Notes: a model not told the origin generated them from the sequence alone. Numbered from the stretch's first letter, positions 5,851 through 15,991 are shown. The stretch: 41,376 nt of DNA from Pseudomonadota bacterium (GCA_024640785.1 JAHEEI010000003.1:1-41376); one strand, 5' to 3'. Made by a program: numbers and translations.

Positions 5851-8301
5851 TCAACCGATACCCGCAAGTTCGAGGCGGCCTTTCCACCTTTCAAACAGCA
5901 GGCGCTTAAGCAGTTGATGCTCCGGGTTTGTTAGTTCAGGATCTCTGTCAATCAGATCAAAGGCTGATTTTCTTGCATCCACCAAAATCTTAATATCCCG
6001 TCCAATATGTGCGACCCTGAAATCTGGAAGGCCGGACTGACGAGTTCCCAGAAATTCACCCGGACCTCTTATATTAAAGTCCTCTTCCGCGATCTTAAAC
6101 CCGTCATTTGTCTTTGACATGACCGTTAAGCGCTGTTTGGCTTCATCAGATTTTTTATACTGAGCAAGCAGGATACACATTGAATCAGCTGATCCTCTGC
6201 CCACACGGCCCCGCAACTGATGAAGCTGTGAAAGTCCGAACCTTTCCGCGTGCTCAATAATGATTAGGGAGGCATTGGGTACATCAATTCCAACCTCTAC
6301 AACTGTTGTTGAGACAAGGATATTAATTCTTCCTTCTTTAAATTTGTTCATGATGGCATCTTTTTCAGCACCTTTCATGCGTCCGTGTACCAGCCCCACT
6401 TTATATCCCGGGAAAATGTCTTTTTGAAGATGGGCGGCCATGTTTGTCGCATCAAGAAGATCGATTTTTTCAGATTCTTCAACCAGCGGATAGACAATGA
6501 ATGCCTGCCTTTTTTTTTCAAGTTCCTGACTGATAATTCTGTAGACGTCTTCCCGTCTGTTTTCATGTAAAACTTTTGTCTTGATGGGTTTCCTGCCGGG
6601 AGGGAGCTCATTAATAATTGATATATCTAGATCGCCGTAAACCGTTAAACCAAGGGTCCGCGGGATTGGTGTTGCCGTCATTACCAGGACATCGGGGTTT
6701 TCTCCTTTTCGCTTGATTTCTGCGCGCTGCATAACCCCGAATTTATGCTGTTCATCAATTACCGCAAATCCAAGATTCTTAAAATCTACGCCTTCCTGAA
6801 TTAGCGCATGGGTGCCGATAATGATATCTGATTCACCGTTTTTAATTTTAACAAGGGCAGCGTCTTTTTGTGCTTTGGGTTGGCTGCTGGTAAGAAGGAC
6901 TACGTTAATTTTGAGTTTATCAGTTAGGCACGCTATGGTTTTCAAATGCTGTTCAGCCAGAATTTCGGTTGGCGCCATGATGGCGGATTGATATCCGTTT
7001 AGCTTTGCGCAAAAACAGGCAATCAGGCATACCACGGTTTTACCGCTTCCCACATCACCCTGAATAAGACGGTTCATGGGATAAGGCTTTTTCATATCTG
7101 TAAAAATATCATCAACAGATCTTTGCTGTGCATTTGTTAACGAAAAGGGGAGAGTTTTTAAAAATTTATTAATTTTGTCCTGATGTATTTTAAAAGAAAT
7201 TCCAGGTTCGATAGCCATGCCTTTTTTTCTTAAGGCAAGAACTGTCTGCAGCATAAAGAATTCATCAAAAACAATTCTTCTGTGATATTCAGACTGCATT
7301 TCAAAGAGTCTATCAATGTCATCTTCTGTGCCCGGAAAGTGAACATGCTGAAAAGCCGTCGCGAGAGGAATCAGGCCATTTTTCTCTTTGATATTATCAG
7401 GCATGACATCGGGAATAAATTTACAGAAATTAATGACTGTGAACTCCATTATTTTCTGCATATTTTTCTGGTGTATTCCTTCTGTTAAAGGATAAACCGG
7501 GAGTATTTTAAGTTTTGATTCAATGGTATCATCCCCTGCAAAGATGTCAATTTCAGGGTGATGAACTTCTTTTTGATATCTGAAGTTTGAGATTGTACCA
7601 GACAGGATTACCTCTGTCCCTTCTTTAAATCTTTTTTTGAGAAGGTTTTTATATTTATCGTTTATCCTGAACCATTTTGCAGAAAGATTTTGTGATCCGT
7701 CACTTATCAGAATCTCAAAAAGTTTGTTTCTTCCGGCAAAAGCCCTGCTGGATATACTCATGACCCTGCCGATAATTGTGACGTGTTCTCCGGAATTTAC
7801 TTGAGAGATTTTTTTAATTCTTCTACGGTCAATATAGTTCCGGGGTATAAGATAGAGCAGGTCCTCAATATTGTTAATATTCATCCGTTTAAGAGCTTCG
7901 GAGATCTTTGGGCCGACGCCTTTGATTTTATCAACCGGTGTCGAAAGCATATGGATACTTTCTAAGAAACTGGTATTTTTAATGGGAGCTTCTTTTTTTA
8001 TGGGCTTGTTATTTTGTGAAATGTCAATTCTGTTAATGGTTAATAAAGCAGCTTTAATGAGCTCTTTTTTCTTATCATGTGTCAAATTATGATAACCCTT
8101 GAAGTCCTGTTCAAGGGTTATCAGGCTATTTCTGGCTTTATTAGAGGATATAAAAGACAAGGCTTTTTCAACCAAAGAAGGTATGAGTTCTTCAATGCCT
8201 TTTATATTTAAAAGAGAAGAGAAGTTATTTTTTGATGCAAAAATAAGAGGCCGCTCTATCGCAGCAAATATGGATTCAAGGTTCTTGAATTTATCTTCCA
8301 T
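5851..8301 (-). CDS. recG: ATP-dependent DNA helicase RecG
   Basis: QGDVGSGKT, IDEQHKFG, MTATPIPRTL, HQLRGRVGRG, RGPGEFLGTRQSG, wedge/OB domain. Confidence 0.98.
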   Translation of the reverse strand: MEDKFKNLESIFAAIERPLIFASKNNFSSLLNIKGIEELIPSLVEKALSFISSNKARNSLITLEQDFKGYHNLTHDKKKELIKAALLTINRIDISQNNKPIKKEAPIKNTSFLESIHMLSTPVDKIKGVGPKISEALKRMNINNIEDLLYLIPRNYIDRRRIKKISQVNSGEHVTIIGRVMSISSRAFAGRNKLFEILISDGSQNLSAKWFRINDKYKNLLKKRFKEGTEVILSGTISNFRYQKEVHHPEIDIFAGDDTIESKLKILPVYPLTEGIHQKNMQKIMEFTVINFCKFIPDVMPDNIKEKNGLIPLATAFQHVHFPGTEDDIDRLFEMQSEYHRRIVFDEFFMLQTVLALRKKGMAIEPGISFKIHQDKINKFLKTLPFSLTNAQQRSVDDIFTDMKKPYPMNRLIQGDVGSGKTVVCLIACFCAKLNGYQSAIMAPTEILAEQHLKTIACLTDKLKINVVLLTSSQPKAQKDAALVKIKNGESDIIIGTHALIQEGVDFKNLGFAVIDEQHKFGVMQRAEIKRKGENPDVLVMTATPIPRTLGLTVYGDLDISIINELPPGRKPIKTKVLHENRREDVYRIISQELEKKRQAFIVYPLVEESEKIDLLDATNMAAHLQKDIFPGYKVGLVHGRMKGAEKDAIMNKFKEGRINILVSTTVVEVGIDVPNASLIIIEHAERFGLSQLHQLRGRVGRGSADSMCILLAQYKKSDEAKQRLTVMSKTNDGFKIAEEDFNIRGPGEFLGTRQSGLPDFRVAHIGRDIKILVDARKSAFDLIDRDPELTNPEHQLLKRLLFERWKGRLELAGIG

Positions 8302-8513: not shown

Positions 8514-9254
8514 ATGCAAATTTTTTTATAGATGAAATTTAAAAAATCGATACTCTGATGCAGGGCAGGGTTTCAGAAAAATCAGGATATGAAAATATTA
8601 TAAAACAGGATAAAAAGTCATTTATTTTAATGATATACCGAGCGCTAATATCTTAGAATAAAAGTAATAAAGAAGGTTTTGTTTCATTCAAATATCATTT
8701 CCATGGGAAAACTTTAATTTCTATCGGAAATAATCCAGTTTTAGCTTAAAAGTTTATTTTTTACCTTTGTCAAGGACTCATAAGAGAAAAGTTCTGACTT
8801 TAATGTCGATTATCTATCCTTAAAACATTTAAAAAGTAGTAGATTAATTGACTTACTGGAATCAAAGATTAAACAGTCTGATCCAGTTATATCAGCCGTA
8901 AAGTAGCATAATATAAAAAATTTGTTTAATGAAAAGTCAAAAAAATTAAAAGTTAATTCTGGGTTGATCCGTTAATTGATCAGGACAGAAAGTGATTTTA
9001 ATTTAGATTTTACATTATTCAAGGAGGTACTGGGGCTAATTCAGCTTAAACCTGGGAGTGCAAGGGATCTTGCGGTTATGATAACTTATGATATTTGAAA
9101 ACGTGATCTGCTGAACAAATTATTTAAAGGCTCTTTTAACCGGAATGAAGCAAACACGGATCTTGCGCTTGGGGCTTATAACTGGGGTATTATAAATATT
9201 GAGTAGGATCCTGAGAACTTTCCGCGCGAAACATGTAATTACTTGCAAAGATAA
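8514..9254 (+). pseudogene. Decayed soluble lytic transglycosylase (SLT domain)
   Basis: Manual translation of 8964-9254: LIR*LIRTESDFN...LGLIQLKPGSARDL...DLALGAYNWGIINIE*DPENFPRETCNYLQR*, i.e. ES, GLMQ-like, AYN and ETxNY motifs with stops and a local frameshift; 5' boundary (AAGGAG + ATG 8514) tentative. Confidence 0.85.
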
Positions 9255-9709
9255 AGAAATTTCTAAATTTAACATCAAGTGGTTAAATCATATTACCATC
9301 AAATATCCTGCAAAAAAGTTATTTTTTTATCCCGAATTTTTTAGAATTAAATTATCAATATATTGTATGAATCATATGTTTAAACTGCATATGTTGAAAT
9401 TCACAACAGCTGTTAATTGACTGTGGAATACTTTGTTATAACAGCATATTTGTATTTAAAATAAAGGGGTTCAAGTAAACTGTTCCAAAATGTAACACTA
9501 TTTTAAATAAAGTAATATCAGTTAGTTATGATTTTAGTAGTCAGTTGACATGATAATTCTAAGCAACATAAAAAAATAAAGTAATTTCAAAAACTAATGT
9601 TGATAAACAGTTTATAATTTTCGAAAAAGTATAAATTTAAAATATTTGAATTTTCTTATACCTGTTTTTAAAATAGATGTTTATAAAAATTAAAGATAAT
9701 ATTTTTTCC

Positions 9710-9738
9710 TTGACGCAGAGGATATAAATTATTAGATT
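9710..9738 (+). promoter_or_regulatory. Candidate sigma70 promoter of the tetR-aor-ubiD unit
   Basis: TTGACG (9710-9715), 17 nt, TAGATT (9733-9738). Confidence 0.55.
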
Positions 9739-9744
9739 TGACTA

Positions 9745-9758
9745 TGAATCCAAATTCA
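9745..9758. promoter_or_regulatory. Candidate TetR operator TGAAT-N4-ATTCA
   Basis: 5+5 inverted repeat overlapping the predicted transcription start directly upstream of the tetR gene. Confidence 0.5.
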
Positions 9759-9776
9759 AAAATTTCAGGTTATACA

Positions 9777-10400
9777 ATGAGAAAAGATAAAAATACTTTA
9801 ATTTTAAACGCTGCAATTAAGATATTTGCAGAAAAAGGGTATCAATATGCAACAATAGCTGAGATCGCTAAGGAAGCTGCTGTTTCGAAAGGACTAATTC
9901 ATTTTTACTTTGAAAGTAAGCTTGATCTTATGCTTTCTGTAATCCTGAGTTTTCTTGAGCATGTTAATGAGATAAATGCTAAAAAATTAATTGGTTCTAT
10001 CAGTCCCGTAGATTCATTGAAGGCAGTTTTTGAGACTTTTCAAGAGCTTTTATTTAAAGATTCGGATAACCTTTATAAGGGGAAGATTTTAAATGAGGGT
10101 CTTCCTGAGGTGGATAAAATTAAAAGCAAAGTGCTTAAAAATAAAAAGGCGGCTATTGATGAACAAAACAGGAAACTATTTGATACTATTGATAAGCTTA
10201 TCCATGAGGGACAGAAGGCTTCACTACTAAATAGAAATCTGAAACCTGAAATCATAAGGCAGATATTGGGTGGGTCAAGTCAGTTTCTAACCACGGGAAT
10301 GTATCTGCACCCATTCGGCAAGGGCGGACTGGGCTATAATAAAAGAGATGTAAAAAAAGCCATGAATATGTTGATAGATAGTTTTAGAGCTGCTAAATAG
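9777..10400 (+). CDS. TetR/AcrR-family transcriptional regulator
   Basis: HTH ILNAAIKIFAEKGY...TIAEIAKEAAVSKGLIHFYFESK; start uncertain (9738, 9744 or 9777). Confidence 0.95.
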   Translation: MRKDKNTLILNAAIKIFAEKGYQYATIAEIAKEAAVSKGLIHFYFESKLDLMLSVILSFLEHVNEINAKKLIGSISPVDSLKAVFETFQELLFKDSDNLYKGKILNEGLPEVDKIKSKVLKNKKAAIDEQNRKLFDTIDKLIHEGQKASLLNRNLKPEIIRQILGGSSQFLTTGMYLHPFGKGGLGYNKRDVKKAMNMLIDSFRAAK

Positions 10401-10453
10401 AAATACTAAGGCTTTTATAAATCAAAATAAATTCAGAGGAAGGGAAGATTATC

Positions 10454-12229
10454 ATGATTAAGGGAGGATATTTTGGAAGATATTTAAAAATTGATCTTAC
10501 TAATAGGAGCTTTAAAGAAGAAGAACTCTCCAAAGATATAATGAATAAATATCTTGGTGGGCGCGGTATTGCAACTAAGCTCCTTTTCGATCTTCAGGGA
10601 GGTAAAATAGATGCTCTTTCTCCGGGAAGCAATTTAATTATATTTACCGGACCTGTTGGCGGGACGAATGTACCGGGAAGTTCAAGGATATTTTTTGGGA
10701 GTAAATCACCGCTCAGTAATGCTATTAATACAACCAGTATGGGTGGTATTTTCCCAAATATGTTTAAAAAGACAGGTTACGACGGTGTTGTAATTCAAGG
10801 AAAAGCTGATGATAAAACCTGGATTCATATTTCTCCCGGTAATGTTCAGTTTCATTCAGCATCAGATGTTTGGGGTCTTAAAACCTCAGATGCTGAAAAA
10901 ATTATCAAAGAAAGAGCAGGTTCTAAATCTAGTGTTGCACTAATTGGTCCGGCTGGAGAGAAACAAGTTCTTTTCAGTGCTATTGTGTCAGATACACGGA
11001 CTGCAGGAAGAGGTGGAACCGGCGCTGTTATGGGTTCAAAAAACCTAAAAGCAATTGCTGTTTCGGGTGAGGTTAAAGTTCCAGTTGCAAATAAAGATGC
11101 AATGGATAAAATATCGAAAAAAATAAGAGAAGATCAGGCTGAGAATCCGAGCGCTCTGGGGATGAACATGAACGGCAGTGCCGGTCTGGTGAGCCCGGTA
11201 AATGCCATGGGTGCGCTTCCGACAAAGAATTTTCAGCAGGGGACTTTTGCGGGTGCCGATGAGATGGGAGGCTATGCCATTACAGAAAAGAACAGGGTGA
11301 AAGCGGTTGCCTGTGCTTCCTGCACGGTCGCCTGTTCTTTAATTGCGGAAGCTAAAAATGGTAAATATGCCGGTACCATAACCGAAGGCCCGGAATATGA
11401 ATCAGATGTAATGCTCGGTTCAAATATCATGGTTGATGATACGGATGTTATTGTCTGCGCAAATCATCTCTGTGATGAATATGGAATCGATACCATCTCA
11501 ACCGGAAATGTGATTGGTTTTGCTATGGAGTGCTATCAGCGCGGGCTCATCACTGAAAAAGATACCGGAGGTCTTGCTTTAAACTGGGGTGACGGTGATA
11601 TCGTTCTCGAACTAATTAATCTTATCGGTAAAAATGAAGGGTTTGGTAAACGGCTGGGTCAGGGTGTTTTGAGATTCTCTAAGGAGATCCCTGGCTCTGA
11701 GTCTTTTGCCATGCACGTAAAGGGACTTGAGCTTGCTGCCTATGACCCAAGAGCTGTTTTTGGGCAGGCTTTATCTTATGCAGTTGCACCTCGCGGGGGT
11801 GAACATGGACGCGGCGGATATATGATCGTAGAGTTTTTTCAGGCTGATGCGGACCTGTACACTCATGTGGGCAAGGCTGAAAAAGCAGCAAAACTGTCAG
11901 AGGCTGCTGCAATTTATGATATAGCCTCCGTTTGCAGTTTTAACTTCATACCGACCTCTGATTTGCCTGAATTAATTAATTCTATAGTAGGTACAAATTA
12001 TACTGAGGAGGATTTAAGACAAATTGCCCGGAATGTTATGACCCTTGAACGTCAGTTTAATAACAGAGAAGGCTTTACCAGAAAAGATGATACTCTGCCG
12101 TCACGTCTTTTAAATGAGCCTTTACCCGATGGAATGGCTGAAGGTAAAAAGGTTGAGGGTCTTGATATAATGCTTGATGAGTATTATGCAATTCGCGGCT
12201 GGGATAAAGAGGGTGTGCCTCTGCAATAG
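10454..12229 (+). CDS. aor: Tungsten-dependent aldehyde:ferredoxin oxidoreductase (AOR/WOR family)
   Basis: YLGGRG, KSPLS, IGPAGE, AGRGGTGAVMGSKNLKAIAV, CASCTVAC plus distal Cys (VCSF), EGPEYES, DEYGIDTIS, DDTLPSR, YYAIRGWD. Confidence 0.95.
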   Translation: MIKGGYFGRYLKIDLTNRSFKEEELSKDIMNKYLGGRGIATKLLFDLQGGKIDALSPGSNLIIFTGPVGGTNVPGSSRIFFGSKSPLSNAINTTSMGGIFPNMFKKTGYDGVVIQGKADDKTWIHISPGNVQFHSASDVWGLKTSDAEKIIKERAGSKSSVALIGPAGEKQVLFSAIVSDTRTAGRGGTGAVMGSKNLKAIAVSGEVKVPVANKDAMDKISKKIREDQAENPSALGMNMNGSAGLVSPVNAMGALPTKNFQQGTFAGADEMGGYAITEKNRVKAVACASCTVACSLIAEAKNGKYAGTITEGPEYESDVMLGSNIMVDDTDVIVCANHLCDEYGIDTISTGNVIGFAMECYQRGLITEKDTGGLALNWGDGDIVLELINLIGKNEGFGKRLGQGVLRFSKEIPGSESFAMHVKGLELAAYDPRAVFGQALSYAVAPRGGEHGRGGYMIVEFFQADADLYTHVGKAEKAAKLSEAAAIYDIASVCSFNFIPTSDLPELINSIVGTNYTEEDLRQIARNVMTLERQFNNREGFTRKDDTLPSRLLNEPLPDGMAEGKKVEGLDIMLDEYYAIRGWDKEGVPLQ

Positions 12230-12325
12230 GCTATAATAGCATTTTTAAAAAGAAAACGTTTGTAGAGATTTTTATAAATACTGGTTCAAGCACACAAAAC
12301 TGTTTAAACTTAAAAGGAGAACAAA

Positions 12326-13789
12326 ATGTATCCATATGATTCATTAAGAGATTATGCAGAGGATTTGGAAAAACAGGGGAAACTGATAAGAATAAATAAG
12401 ATGGATCAGGACAAGTATGAGATGTCCGCACTGGTCTATAAACTAAATGACAGGCTGGACTATAAAGCACCGGCCTTCCTGGCTGAGAAAACGAAGATTA
12501 ATGATAAAGTCTATGATTCACCGGTTATCGGCAATCTTTTAAATAGTTTTGGGACAGTTGCCCAGTGCTTTGGTGTAGAGAAGATTAATGACAATCAGGG
12601 CGAGATGTATGATGCCGCGGTAGCACGAATTATGTCTTTTCAGGATAAGGAGATGAAGTGGCAAAGCATTGAACCTGTGATTGTTGAAAAATCGGCGGCC
12701 CCCTGTAAAGAGGTTATATTAAACGGTGAGGATGCAGACCTGGGTAAATTTCCATGGATTAAGAATAATCCTGCAGACGGAAGTCAATATATAAGCGCCG
12801 GTTCAGTTATCTTGGAAGATGTTGACCTTGGGAAAAATGTGGGAACCTACCGGATGCAGGTAAAAGGTCCGCGCAAGGTTGGGGTATATTTTACAAACCA
12901 GAGCCATGGATATAAGTTTATGATGCAGGCTCTTGAACGCGGTGAAGAAAGTGTAAAGGTCTCTGTTGCTGTGGGTATAGACCCGATTTCATGGATGATG
13001 AGCAGCACACGCCTTGCTGATTTGGGTGAAGATGAATTTTCAATTTCCGGTGGATTTAGAGGTAAGGCGGTGGAACTTGTTAAGAGTGAAACCAATGATC
13101 TTAATGTTCCAGCCCATGCAGAATTCATCATTGAAGGGGATATTTCAATGGAAACAGCAGAGGAGGGCCCATACGGTGAAATGCTGGGATATGTGGGAAA
13201 AAAGGTCTGGACCTTTGAAATTGATATAAAGACGATTACTCACAGGGAAAAACCCTGGGTATATAATTTGTGGCCCGGTATTGGCGGCGCATACTTAACC
13301 CTTCCATGGGAGGTGGGTCAGTTCACTAAATTAAAACAGATCATGCCGAACCTGGTTAAACTGCATACCCCACCTGCAACCGCATCCGTGGTTATTGCCT
13401 GTATTGATAAGAAACTTCCGGGTGAAGGTATTGAGGCAGGTATGATGATTCTGGGTTACCGGTTCATCGGTTTCAGCAAGAAAATGGCCATTATTCTGGA
13501 TAAGGATATTGATCCAACAGATTTAAACAGAGTAATTCAGGCGGTCGGTACCCGCTGGCAGCCTGATCCTGCAAGCCTGGTTGTTAAACAGTCTTTTCAT
13601 ATCCCTCTTGAACCCAGCAGTAAAGAGATGTTTTTAAGCAGCAAAATAGTCATTGATGCGACCCGGCAAATGGAAAGTGAAGGGGGGCCTGAGACTTACC
13701 CTTATGATAACCGCACCGTGCTTGAAGAAAGAGCTGAAGAAGCCTTTGATATCGTAAATAAAAGATGGGATGAATATTTTGGCAAATAA
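12326..13789 (+). CDS. UbiD-family prFMN-dependent (de)carboxylase
   Basis: AAAGGAG RBS; NVGTYRMQV (Arg), VPAHAEFIIEG, EEGPYGEMLGY (two Glu), TRWQP, SKIVIDATR. Confidence 0.93.
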   Translation: MYPYDSLRDYAEDLEKQGKLIRINKMDQDKYEMSALVYKLNDRLDYKAPAFLAEKTKINDKVYDSPVIGNLLNSFGTVAQCFGVEKINDNQGEMYDAAVARIMSFQDKEMKWQSIEPVIVEKSAAPCKEVILNGEDADLGKFPWIKNNPADGSQYISAGSVILEDVDLGKNVGTYRMQVKGPRKVGVYFTNQSHGYKFMMQALERGEESVKVSVAVGIDPISWMMSSTRLADLGEDEFSISGGFRGKAVELVKSETNDLNVPAHAEFIIEGDISMETAEEGPYGEMLGYVGKKVWTFEIDIKTITHREKPWVYNLWPGIGGAYLTLPWEVGQFTKLKQIMPNLVKLHTPPATASVVIACIDKKLPGEGIEAGMMILGYRFIGFSKKMAIILDKDIDPTDLNRVIQAVGTRWQPDPASLVVKQSFHIPLEPSSKEMFLSSKIVIDATRQMESEGGPETYPYDNRTVLEERAEEAFDIVNKRWDEYFGK

Positions 13790-13809
13790 TTTTATCCAAT
13801 GTTGATATA

Positions 13810-13838
13810 AAAGAGCCCTATATTAAACAGGGCTCTTT
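13810..13838 (+). terminator. Intrinsic terminator-like hairpin after the ubiD-family gene
   Basis: AAAGAGCCCT / 9 nt / AGGGCTCTTT followed by A/T-rich sequence, 20 nt after the stop. Confidence 0.7.
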
Positions 13839-14118
13839 ATATATAATGGTCTGATCTAGGTACGAAGCTTTTAGAAGAGGATTCAATTTTACTTGACATC
13901 GAGATAATATAAGATTGAGTTATGCTAACTTAGAACTCATTATTCTAGTAAAGACCCAAGTTGTTTAAATTCATGTTTCATATTAATTATTAAAAATAAA
14001 TCCTTGAAAAAATCTTTCTATGTTCTATATATAAACAATAAAAGATACTTATATCTTTAAAATTATAGGGCTATAAGGTCTGTTTATCTCTAAACCAACC
14101 CTAAAATAAGGAGTGAAA

Positions 14119-14955
14119 ATGAAACAAAACTATAAAAAGTTTCATTTGCCAACAAAGTTAATATCCATAATCCTTGCCATCGGGCTTATTTTTATTTGTT
14201 CATCAGCATATTGTCAGGAAGATGATCCATGTGTGAAAAAAGAGAAATGGGAGTTTATGCTTACCCCATATTTTAACGCTAACAGCCTTGACCTCGACTC
14301 CACGATTAAGGGAACAACAGCAGACGTTGATCTGGATTTTTCCGACCTTACGGATGATTTTGATGCCTGGGGTGCATCGGCCCTTTTTGAGGCCCGCAAA
14401 GGTAAATTGGGCTTCCTTTTTAATGGGACGTATATAGACATCGATGGTGACTTTAATCTGGACCCCCCTACACTTGATAAGATAAATGTGGATATTGAGC
14501 AAGCGATCGTAGATGGGGCGCTTATGTACCGAATATTCGAAGGACCGCTGAGAAAAGGATGTTATCTGAAGACGACCCTTGATGTGTGGGGGGGGGCTCG
14601 CTATGTTTATCTGAAACAGGAAATATCCCCTAGACTCAATAGCGGCCTCACAACAAAGCTCGACAAAAGCAAAGACTGGGTGGAACCTATCTTGGGAGCC
14701 CGCATTTTAGTTCGACTGACCAAGAAAATTAGCTGGCTGGCGATGGGCAATGTTAGCGGCTTCGGCATTGGGTCGGCCTCCGACAAGACCTGGGATTTTA
14801 CGACTGGATTTGATTTTCGTCTGTTTGAGAAAGCTTCTTTAAAGCTGGCATATCGAATTTATGATATTGATTACGATATCGGAAGCGGTACGGAAGAGTT
14901 TGGGCTGGATGGCAAAATGGAAGGTCCTTGGCTGGGAATGACTTTCTATTTCTAA
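14119..14955 (+). CDS. Outer-membrane beta-barrel protein (porin-like, unknown substrate)
   Basis: AAGGAG RBS, signal peptide, alternating amphipathic beta strands, C-terminal beta-signal GPWLGMTFYF (alternative GTG start 14113). Confidence 0.85.
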   Translation: MKQNYKKFHLPTKLISIILAIGLIFICSSAYCQEDDPCVKKEKWEFMLTPYFNANSLDLDSTIKGTTADVDLDFSDLTDDFDAWGASALFEARKGKLGFLFNGTYIDIDGDFNLDPPTLDKINVDIEQAIVDGALMYRIFEGPLRKGCYLKTTLDVWGGARYVYLKQEISPRLNSGLTTKLDKSKDWVEPILGARILVRLTKKISWLAMGNVSGFGIGSASDKTWDFTTGFDFRLFEKASLKLAYRIYDIDYDIGSGTEEFGLDGKMEGPWLGMTFYF

Positions 14956-15239
14956 ATATGTTCCAAACGATATTTTATATAAAAACATACCAGAATAGGA
15001 AATTAATTGTATCTATAAAAGGCAAAAAATTTAGTATTGCAAAGCAAGATGTGTTTTCATTTATTTGTTAAGGAGAGTAAGGTTTTTCCATCATTGGCAG
15101 AGTCAACACAACTCCAGGCAACCTTAACATTTCAGCAAAAATTAAAAGTCAACGTTTACGATAATAATATTGAATATTTTTAAGAATTAAAGGTGTTGTA
15201 CGAACTGTTGACCCTAGGTTTTGTTAAGAGTACTTGTGG

Positions 15240-15923
15240 TTATGTGAAAAAGCAGAGTGAAAACCCTTTTTTTATTTTAAATAATCCAATAACCCGAATA
15301 ATTAAGTAATCAATTATCTGAACGCAGCGGCCATAATTACAGATGTAGGCCTTATTGTCTACGCTTGCATAACCATAATTCATAATAACGTTCCAGGCAT
15401 TGAAGTTTCTATTCGCCTCCAAAATACTTGTCCAGTATCAGCCACTCTGAATTCCTTTAAATAACTGCATATCTATCGATGTTACTTATTCTTTGCCTGT
15501 ACTTTCAGTAATTCCAACAAGCTCAGTTTTAGTCGGCAATCGCCAGTCTCCCATACAACCTATCCGTATAACCACAATCTACTTCTTAGATTTTAATTAC
15601 AACCCTTTTTGCATTATTCATCCCAGCTGTAACTCGAATTTTTCAATCAAACAAGCCCTGTTGTCATATCCTTTAACGTACCATTTCCCTAATCACATCA
15701 AAAGTCACCTTTTGAGAGTGTGCCATTACAGCTCTCACATGAAGATGGTGTGCCGTTTGTATTTTTGATATGAATTCCTCTGTTGTAGGTTCTGTACTGT
15801 GCGACCCTATTGTAAACACAAGATTTTCTGTAAAGCCAATATCGGTATAAGGAAGATGAACATTGTTGCTAGCATAACTATAATTATTATCCGAGTCTTT
15901 GTCCTCACTAATTCTTTCTACAT
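15240..15923 (-). pseudogene. Decayed DUF1566 (Lcl C-terminal domain) exported protein
   Basis: Minus-strand translation gives CD*GNGTLKDMTTGLV*LK ... GDWRLPTKTELVGI...*YWTS...AWNV...RCV with several stops and at least one frameshift; AAGGAG + ATG at 15923 is followed at once by TAG. Confidence 0.82.
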
Positions 15924-15991
15924 TTTAATTCTCCTTTTTGTATTAACTATTGTAAGAGCAAGCTCAAGTTTTTGCATTTTAATATTGGGCG

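Follow-up and report, generated by a model that had tools for sequence, protein, structure and literature searches.

A repressor-led AOR-UbiD gene cluster

We analyzed a 41,376-nucleotide stretch of bacterial DNA deposited as Pseudomonadota (GCA_024640785.1, JAHEEI010000003.1:1-41376), here called the window, which is contig C299 of a metagenome-assembled genome (MAG) of an uncultured sediment bacterium, of 2.84 Mb in 305 contigs, with 92% completeness and 5.7% contamination. The nearest named relatives of this genome are uncultured Thermodesulfobacteriota. At positions 9777 to 13789, three genes encode a TetR-family regulator, an aldehyde:ferredoxin oxidoreductase (AOR) and a UbiD-family decarboxylase. 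The pairing of these two known enzyme types is real and conserved, stands under a predicted repressor and is usually accompanied by a third enzyme; it is undescribed in the literature that we searched. The features of the locus are as follows.

9710-9738, plus strand: putative sigma-70-type promoter from a consensus scan (-35 TTGACG at 9710-9715, 17-nucleotide spacer, -10 TAGATT at 9733-9738)
9745-9758, plus strand: putative TetR operator, a 14-nucleotide palindrome (TGAAT-CCAA-ATTCA) lying downstream of the -10 box and upstream of the tetR start codon
9777-10400, plus strand: TetR-family regulator, 207 amino acids (open reading frame [ORF] 9738/9777-10400)
10454-12229, plus strand: AOR-clade aldehyde:ferredoxin oxidoreductase, 591 amino acids, AFOR_N and AFOR_C domains
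12326-13789, plus strand: UbiD-family decarboxylase, 487 amino acids, UbiD_N, UbiD and UbiD_C domains
13805-13842, plus strand: terminator-like hairpin 3' of ubiD (GC stem 13813-13819/13829-13835; T-rich tail to 13845)

The original prediction described tetR, aor and ubiD as co-oriented and separated by gaps of 53 and 96 nucleotides, and our ORF calls agree (10401-10453 and 12230-12325); a purine-rich ribosome-binding site lies at the end of each gap. It had also reported no obvious internal terminator and one hairpin after ubiD, and both statements held. A consensus scan found no terminator-like site in either gap, and neither gap folded better than shuffled sequences (z of -0.58 and +0.82). 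A long-loop stem followed by U5 lies at 12219-12273 and could conceivably attenuate transcription weakly. Downstream of ubiD, the hairpin with its T-rich tail folds at -18.2 kcal/mol (z of -1.92; 6 of 200 shuffles fold equally well), and it was overlooked by the consensus terminator scan because its loop is 9 nucleotides long.

Conservation of the promoter and of a putative TetR operator

The regulator matched TetR_N in Pfam at 54.4 bits. Its start was placed at ATG 9777, as originally predicted, and this ATG column is kept in all five aligned relatives; the alternative TTG at 9738 was not taken as the start because it lies inside the -10 box. The upstream alignment represents five of the seven TetR-headed loci, as L023 is identical to L013, and L014, which has a more distant TetR, was left out. 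In it, the -35 element CTTGAC and the ATTA core of the -10 box are invariant in all five relatives. The palindrome at 9745-9758, about 20 nucleotides upstream of the conserved ATG, is likewise invariant in the window, L013, L024, L080 and L050. The exact 14-mer was found in L013, L023, L024, L050, L080 and the window-derived loci, whereas 130 other loci lack it. Within the window's own genome, the palindrome is the only zero-mismatch copy. A copy with one mismatch on contig C145 lies inside a 441-amino-acid ORF and was taken as chance.

An N-terminal TetR helix-turn-helix and a conserved palindrome at the promoter are what one expects of an autoregulated TetR operon, and in this usual picture the palindrome would be the operator of TetR. 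TetR orthologs (59 to 83% identity) lead the cluster in L013, L014, L023, L024, L050 and L080. In L050, the same promoter, operator and TetR are followed directly by UbiD, without AOR. The regulator reached no NCBIfam equivalog (the highest score was 66 bits for Bacillus FadR, whose cut-off is 200), and its best solved relatives, FadR-like or uncharacterized TetRs at no more than 39 bits, are uninformative as to its ligand.

The oxidoreductase is predicted to be an AOR in the strict sense

The second gene product matched AFOR_N at 231.8 bits (residues 8-205) and AFOR_C at 416.4 bits (residues 219-590). Among solved structures, it matched 9g7j (414 bits) and Pyrococcus furiosus AOR 1aor (408 bits) best, followed by FOR 1b25 (290 bits), WOR5 (260 bits) and BamB 4z3w (146 bits), and it scored 46 bits against the GAPOR model, which has a cut-off of 1300. 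These scores identify it as a predicted AOR in the strict sense, nearer to AOR than to FOR, WOR5, GAPOR or BamB. In a phmmer alignment to 1aor, the columns of Cys288, Cys291, Cys295, Cys494, Glu313 and His448 are all identical in the window AOR; we take the four cysteines to be the [4Fe-4S] ligands and Glu313 and His448 to be active-site residues. The enzyme would probably carry a tungsto- or molybdo-pyranopterin cofactor and a [4Fe-4S] cluster, with ferredoxin as the acceptor. Tungsten AORs interconvert aldehydes and acids reversibly, and enzymes of the AOR clade have broad substrate ranges.

The genome holds 19 AFOR_C matches in 2.84 Mb, and by our own estimate a single UbiD gene in this genome would have an AOR neighbor by chance with a probability of roughly 1 to 2%. 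On this genome alone, chance adjacency is unlikely though not negligible, and we dismiss it because the pairing recurs elsewhere. The UbiD-linked AORs form a tight orthogroup, 66 to 91% identical to the window AOR, and the best paralog in its own genome is 40% identical (seven compared).

The decarboxylase is predicted to represent an uncharacterized UbiD subfamily

The third gene product matched UbiD_N (33.7 bits), UbiD (181.7 bits) and UbiD_C (64.3 bits) in Pfam and passed the general family model TIGR00148 with 276.2 bits against a cut-off of 244.85. Every UbiD equivalog stayed below its cut-off: VdcC reached 221.1 of 650 bits, TIGR03701 179.5 of 495.9 and the E. coli-type UbiD (PRK10922) 145.5 of 788. 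The best solved relative is the phenolic acid decarboxylase 7ae4 (145 bits over residues 4-469), followed by E. coli UbiD 2idb/5m1c (about 129 bits; 128.7), 6h6v (124 bits) and 7pda (116 bits). Lower matches were Fdc1 entries (about 62 to 81 bits), 6da6 (80 bits), AnInD (70 bits), AroY-type enzymes (56 to 61 bits) and PA0254 (about 52 bits). On these scores, the protein is assigned, by homology, to an uncharacterized subfamily of the family dependent on prenylated flavin mononucleotide (prFMN). Its 120 best database relatives all come from metagenomes or MAGs and carry generic or automatic names only.

The original prediction stated that both enzymes keep their catalytic motifs, and this is borne out by the six 1aor columns in AOR and by residues N171, R176, E237, E280 and E285 (in EGPYGE) in UbiD. 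Over 73 family rows, N171, R176 and E237 are conserved in 73, H194 in 69, E280 in 65 (with Asp in the other 8) and E285 in 72. We take the N, H and E columns to be metal- and phosphate-binding and the R and the E-x4-E motif to be catalytic. The E285 column, Glu in 72 of the 73 family rows, is Asp in the quinone-type paralog described below.

A place in the MqnL/UbiD quinone clade had been named in advance as a finding that would undo the proposal, and the window UbiD does not fall there. Its scores lie far below the cut-offs of the quinone equivalogs, and the true menaquinone decarboxylase is encoded elsewhere: exactly one other UbiD was found in the genome, on contig C303, which meets the TIGR03701 cut-off with 613.9 bits and adjoins an MqnP-like prenyltransferase. 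For both reasons, we conclude that the window UbiD is not a quinone enzyme. A UbiX flavin prenyltransferase (258.2 bits, cut-off 188) is encoded on contig C67, away from the cluster. The cluster itself holds neither a UbiX-like (B) gene nor a small D-like gene of the kind expected for VdcBCD-type organization. We also observed that two gammaproteobacterial Candidatus Foliamicus genomes (G401 and G402, the genomes of L021 and L022) have four UbiD-family regions each, of which none reaches the canonical E. coli-type cut-off (best 185 bits against 788).

AOR and UbiD recur together in several gene orders

Other genomes share the pairing; that it might be confined to this one had been raised in the original prediction as a possible objection. 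A genome scan with one genome per species gave 10 loci, of which 5 have an orthologous AOR beside UbiD, 2 are too short and 3, with 6 kb on each side, lack one. A metagenome scan of the best 80 of 188 relatives brought the total, genome loci included, to 90. We defined as core the 74 loci whose UbiD is at least 57% identical to that of the window; the other 16 have 43 to 56% identity. The AOR ortholog (64 to 94% identity) adjoins UbiD in 26 of the 74 core loci and in 13 of the 25 core loci that extend for at least 2 kb on both sides. Some loci are duplicates (L013 and L023, L019 and L045, and three more pairs). The gene orders are as follows.

TetR-AOR-UbiD: the window, L013, L023 and L024
TetR-AOR-77-amino-acid ORF-SDR-UbiD: L080; partly L026 and L025
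TetR-AOR-UbiD-SDR: L014
MarR-MarR-SDR-AOR-UbiD: L015, L033 and L099
SDR-AOR-UbiD without the MarR pair: L032 and L035
UbiD-AOR-SDR: L017, L038, L039, L042, L043, L048 and L074
AOR-x-SDR-UbiD: L051

The adjacency of AOR and UbiD therefore holds in at least five gene orders, and shuffled order with kept adjacency, a classical sign, suggests a functional linkage. When 572 neighboring ORFs were clustered, the only strong recurrent neighbors were the AOR family (29 loci, paralogs included) and one family of short-chain dehydrogenases/reductases (SDR; 24 loci), so that a 268-amino-acid SDR is the third recurrent member. We read the window cluster as a reduced form of a conserved SDR-AOR-UbiD module in an uncultured class of Thermodesulfobacteriota. 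A search of the 96-nucleotide AOR-UbiD gap of the window for an SDR remnant gave no match, and the gaps of about 350 nucleotides in L013, L023 and L024 hold the 77-amino-acid ORF intact. Contig C195 of the window's own genome carries a fragment of an SDR ortholog at its edge, with 71% identity over 104 residues.

The association was also seen among 401 genomes sampled evenly across the phylum, for which thresholds of E <= 1e-100 for UbiD and E <= 1e-180 for AOR were applied and the three best AOR candidates were scored per genome, so that copies may be missed. The UbiD ortholog occurs in 9 and the AOR ortholog in 8 of these genomes, all in the class of the window. UbiD is adjacent in seven of the eight AOR-bearing genomes, six by threshold and the seventh, G387, with a UbiD that falls below the threshold because the gene is cut at a contig end; its locus reads UbiD-AOR-SDR and then a coproporphyrinogen-oxidase-like gene. 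In the eighth, G363, AOR and UbiD lie on two short contigs. Distant AOR paralogs, 24 to 38% identical to the window AOR, were found within a few kilobases of UbiD orthologs in L043 (2117-3961), L048, L051, L070, L088, L036 and L072, in some of these loci alongside the orthologous AOR; the association with UbiD thus reaches beyond one AOR orthogroup.

Two kinds of small ORF also lie in these neighborhoods. The 77-amino-acid ORF (L013:3928-4161; also in L023, L024, L025, L026, L080 and L051) is conserved and cysteine-free, lies between AOR and SDR or UbiD, and has a weak match to DUF2621 (23.5 bits, cut-off 27.7). Small ORFs of cluster c3 downstream of UbiD in eight loci lack Pfam matches and bear no relation to the 77-amino-acid ORF.

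Co-inheritance, selection and expression

Pairwise distances of UbiD and AOR over 17 loci were correlated (r = 0.913, with 0 of 2000 permutations as high). This shows co-inheritance and nothing more, because any two vertically inherited genes correlate. When 73 UbiD rows were placed on a quick maximum-likelihood tree, a 56-row core clade had 98% support, and members linked to AOR or SDR occur in all three of its subclades; the linkage therefore appears to be old and to have been lost or dispersed in some branches, many of the apparent losses on the tree being truncated contigs. Ratios of nonsynonymous to synonymous substitution (dN/dS) against L013 and L024 were 0.043 to 0.052 for AOR, 0.045 to 0.047 for UbiD and 0.10 to 0.11 for TetR, at dS values of 1.2 to 1.6, which are near saturation. 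These low ratios suggest that both enzymes have been maintained despite the decayed neighborhood. Four estuary metatranscriptome runs contained exact contigs of 151 to 365 nucleotides from AOR (for example 10987-11137 and 11058-11422) and UbiD (for example 12458-12615 and 12664-13023), a weak hint that both genes may be expressed in nature, although DNA carry-over could produce the same contigs.

A proposed oxidative route through a shared acid

We propose that TetR-AOR-UbiD is a substrate-inducible oxidative funnel in which the two enzymes are coupled through a shared acid and reduce ferredoxin, a reading to which we give an even chance of being correct. The substrate would bear its carbonyl carbon on an aromatic, heteroaromatic or alkene system. 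In loci with an SDR, this enzyme would convert a primary alcohol to the aldehyde; AOR would oxidize the aldehyde to the free acid, passing two low-potential electrons to ferredoxin without ATP or CoA; and UbiD, with prFMN from the UbiX encoded elsewhere, would take the carboxyl group off as CO2. The net outcome would be an oxygen-free "deformylation" together with reduced ferredoxin. TetR would bind the palindrome just 3' of the -10 box and presumably be released by the substrate or the acid. Co-transcription and repression by TetR are inferences, as are the acid common to the two enzymes, the oxidative direction of flux and the role of ferredoxin as acceptor.

Several arguments favor the oxidative direction, none of them decisive. 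UbiD is constant in a series of nested sets, from TetR-UbiD in L050 through AOR-UbiD in the window to SDR-AOR-UbiD, which suggests feeder enzymes ahead of a common last step. The clusters stand under TetR or MarR repressors, as is usual for catabolic and detoxification operons, and flux in the other direction would end at a reactive aldehyde here and would have no pull in L050. As to the substrate, a lignin-type aromatic aldehyde is our sober guess, because the nearest solved relatives of UbiD use hydroxy- and methoxy-benzoates and a prenylated hydroxybenzoate, because genes of the Amidohydro_2 type adjoin some UbiD relatives, and because the regulators are of the MarR and TetR families. Some Amidohydro_2 members are metal-dependent decarboxylases of aromatic acids, and MarR and TetR regulators are common for phenolic compounds.

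A number of observations weigh against this proposal. Twelve of the 25 informative core loci lack the orthologous AOR, as do all 16 of the more distant UbiD loci, and the UbiD orthologs of Candidatus Foliamicus (59% identity) lie among housekeeping genes. Loci from related organisms are non-independent, so that our counts overstate the number of independent observations. The SDR and the 77-amino-acid ORF of the closest relatives are absent from the window locus, and no ferredoxin, UbiX or transporter gene lies inside the cluster. Fused AOR-UbiD or SDR-UbiD proteins were not found among UbiD relatives of 854 to 2435 amino acids (E <= 1e-40), which is weak evidence. In the four metatranscriptome runs, searched over 9400-14200, no RNA contig spans 12229-12326 and none covers tetR or the promoter, holes that prove nothing in assembled contigs. 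Finally, an anaerobe would gain a harder-to-degrade product from decarboxylation of an aromatic acid, and a benefit beyond detoxification or reduced ferredoxin is not obvious.

The loci without AOR raise the question of whether the two enzymes act on the same molecule at all. They might instead be a co-located stress or detoxification set acting on separate molecules, with AOR as a broad aldehyde scavenger and UbiD for environmental acids. The broad range of AOR-clade enzymes, the absence of AOR beside about half of the informative UbiD orthologs, the retention of UbiD alone under the same operator in L050, and the raised background of adjacency from 19 AOR-family genes would all fit such a set. 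We nevertheless consider it rather unlikely, since the linked AOR is a distinct orthogroup with UbiD adjacent in seven of eight genomes, adjacency survives at least five rearrangements, and the UbiD and AOR distance matrices are correlated at r = 0.91. A still looser connection, to which we assign a very slight probability, would make UbiD a biosynthetic enzyme for a cofactor, quinone or lipid head group, acting on a prenylated or hydroxy-aryl acid, with AOR incidental. Its relatives are automatically named 4-hydroxy-3-polyprenylbenzoate decarboxylase, E. coli UbiD ranks second among its solved relatives (128.7 bits), and the UbiD-family regions of the two Candidatus Foliamicus genomes, four in each, include none at the canonical cut-off, so that the subfamily might have a quinone role there. 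This view has to contend with the bona fide menaquinone decarboxylase and prenyltransferase elsewhere in the genome, the scores far below the quinone equivalog cut-offs, the Glu in the E285 column that is Asp in the quinone-type paralog, the restriction of the family to 9 of 401 genomes of the phylum, and the placement of the gene under repressor control.

A coupled pathway could also run in reverse. UbiD would then carboxylate a C-H bond with CO2, the unfavorable equilibrium being pulled by AOR as it reduces the acid with reduced ferredoxin, and the SDR would carry the product on to the alcohol. The module would be a natural, ATP-free counterpart of the engineered cascades of UbiD and carboxylic acid reductase, and it would provide an electron sink or a means of activation. 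In vitro, enzymes of both families work in either direction. Surplus low-potential reductant is conceivable in an anaerobe that has 19 AOR-family genes, and the complete SDR-AOR-UbiD module would take the product to the alcohol. The cascade principle has been shown with carboxylic acid reductase (CAR), which together with UbiD yields indole-3-carboxaldehyde from indole and CO2, according to the available text of PMC8988006. Against this stand L050, which without AOR has no pull, the window, which without the SDR would be left with a reactive aldehyde as end product, the very low potential and the high concentrations of acid that AOR needs to reduce acids, the lack of CO2-concentrating or ATP-dependent activating genes nearby, and the TetR/MarR control, which would suit catabolism or detoxification better. 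We judge reverse flux improbable, and we retain the oxidative funnel as our preferred reading.

A possible link to tetrapyrrole metabolism

The neighborhoods of the UbiD relatives led us to a speculative extension of the oxidative funnel, for which we see only a small chance: the module may be an oxygen-free deformylase for tetrapyrrole-derived pigments, such as formyl chlorophylls or ring-opened chlorophyll and heme catabolites, in anoxic sediment. AOR would oxidize a pyrrole-bound formyl group to the pyrrole carboxylic acid, UbiD would release CO2, and the module would form part of a much larger, as yet undescribed anaerobic tetrapyrrole-processing metabolism in this class of Thermodesulfobacteriota. 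Formyl groups occur on chlorophyll b and on phyllobilins.

Coproporphyrinogen-oxidase-like genes (34 to 52 bits, Pfam cut-off 31.8) lie beside UbiD in four clades, at the following loci.

Coproporphyrinogen-oxidase-like neighbors: L042, L043, L046, L074 and G387; L030 and L057; L097, L101 and L102

Bilin-reductase-like genes (55 bits) lie directly 3' of UbiD in L019, L044, L045 and L076, and genes for HemG-type flavodoxin-like, PNPOx-like and FMN-reductase proteins are frequent near UbiD relatives. Coproporphyrinogen oxidase, the ferredoxin-dependent bilin reductases (FDBR) and red chlorophyll catabolite reductase (RCCR) share one fold, according to the available text of PMC10151467. In G108, a genome of the same genus, a bilin-reductase-like gene (28.6 bits, below the cut-off), a B12-binding radical SAM gene and two BchN/BchB-like genes, the second of these nitrogenase-type genes ending in a PCP_red domain, are followed by the SDR ortholog (L113, G108:C8:52000-60438). 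The same BchB-like/SDR pair lies at the end of contig C195 in the window's own genome (L105:3-1805).

This genome, although that of a non-phototrophic anaerobe, has 14 matches to PF05996 (ferredoxin-dependent bilin reductase), 11 of them over the cut-off.

PF05996 matches in the window's own genome: contigs C179, C222, C171, C128, C100, C164, C257, C1, C262, C118 and C215

Several of them adjoin AOR-family and PNPOx-like genes: on C179, the order is AOR, a 190-amino-acid ORF, an FDBR-like gene and Pyridox_ox_2; on C215, Pyridox_ox_2 is followed by AOR. In the phylum sample, PF05996 was found over the cut-off in 13 of 401 genomes (G000 included), all in the class of the window and with 6 to 7 scored copies each, and in none of the 388 genomes of other classes. 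By family, with G000 left out, it occurs in 8 of 8 genomes of f1, 2 of 2 of f2, 2 of 2 of f4 and 0 of 1 of f3, which makes 12 of 13 for the class. Because such paralogs are very numerous in this class, part of the adjacency of tetrapyrrole genes to UbiD may be background. If the substrate is pigment-derived, the module would give access to a nearly unexplored subject, how chlorophylls and bilins are broken down anaerobically in sediments.

Surroundings of the cluster in the window

The cluster is flanked by recG (5851-8301, minus strand) on one side and, on the other, by an unrelated outer-membrane-type gene; about 270 nucleotides without ORFs separate the latter from the hairpin at 13805-13842. 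The remaining genes of the window are housekeeping genes: murA, hisD, the genes for the CCA-adding enzyme, ribosomal proteins S9 and L13 and NAD kinase, recN, the RNase III gene, der, aroB and type IV pilus genes. Riboswitches and other RNAs were sought, and no Rfam family reached its gathering score anywhere in the window.

Upstream of tetR, within an AT-rich stretch of 1.4 kb (28% GC), lies a decayed lytic transglycosylase gene with an SLT domain (8522-9263, plus strand). It shares 51% identity with its intact counterpart in the equivalent place of L080 and carries a frameshift and at least nine in-frame stops; the gene is also intact in L024. Downstream, positions 14113-14955 (plus strand) encode a 280-amino-acid protein whose start resembles a signal peptide and whose C-terminal residue is aromatic, like that of outer-membrane beta-barrels; neither Pfam nor NCBIfam gave a match, and relatives do not keep the gene beside the cluster. 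The following stretch of about 1 kb (14956-15991) holds no convincing ORF, the sole candidate being a 91-amino-acid TTG ORF without a Pfam match.

Significance and comparison with known systems

AOR and UbiD are each well studied and reversible and meet at the free carboxylic acid, and no natural coupling of the two has been reported in the literature searched. The original prediction knew of no characterized two-enzyme operon of this form, and the open-access literature is in accord: in the available text of papers and preprints on UbiD with AOR, tungsten or CAR, we found no description of a natural AOR-UbiD cluster; reviews and the engineered work on UbiD with CAR turned up, and two papers mention AOR solely as BamB. 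If our proposal is correct, the module would be a new means, free of oxygen and independent of ATP and CoA, by which a one-carbon substituent is taken off an unsaturated carbon skeleton or, in reverse, attached to it, with the electrons kept in ferredoxin. For enzymology, it would offer a matched natural enzyme pair together with a TetR sensor, the ligand of which should identify the substrate; for biocatalysis, it is of interest in that UbiD enzymes are now paired with ATP-consuming carboxylic acid reductases.

The window AOR has the two-domain architecture, the length, and the cluster Cys and Glu/His columns of P. furiosus AOR (1aor) and 9g7j, and like them it stands alone, without partners of the AorA/AorC or polyferredoxin type. 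It differs from them in belonging to a separate orthogroup (66 to 91% identity) that is genomically tied to UbiD. The window UbiD shares the fold family, and prFMN from UbiX, with the quinone-pathway enzymes UbiD and MqnL (SCO4490 type), but it scores far below their cut-offs and has Glu at the acid/base column where the quinone paralog on C303 has Asp. VdcBCD/BsdBCD, a repressor-controlled detoxification-type decarboxylase, acts on vanillic and 4-hydroxybenzoic acids; its C subunit (7ae4) is the best solved relative of the window UbiD, and the E-x4-E motif is common to both. In contrast to that system, the window UbiD scores 221 against the VdcC cut-off of 650, has no adjacent UbiX (B) or small D gene, and is partnered by AOR and often by an SDR. 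The engineered cascades of UbiD and CAR described in PMC8988006, as far as its available text shows, likewise combine UbiD with an acid/aldehyde enzyme that shares the free acid. CAR, however, uses ATP and NADPH and works only from acid to aldehyde, whereas the cluster described here has a presumably ferredoxin-linked, ATP-independent AOR in a natural, conserved pairing for which we favor the opposite direction.

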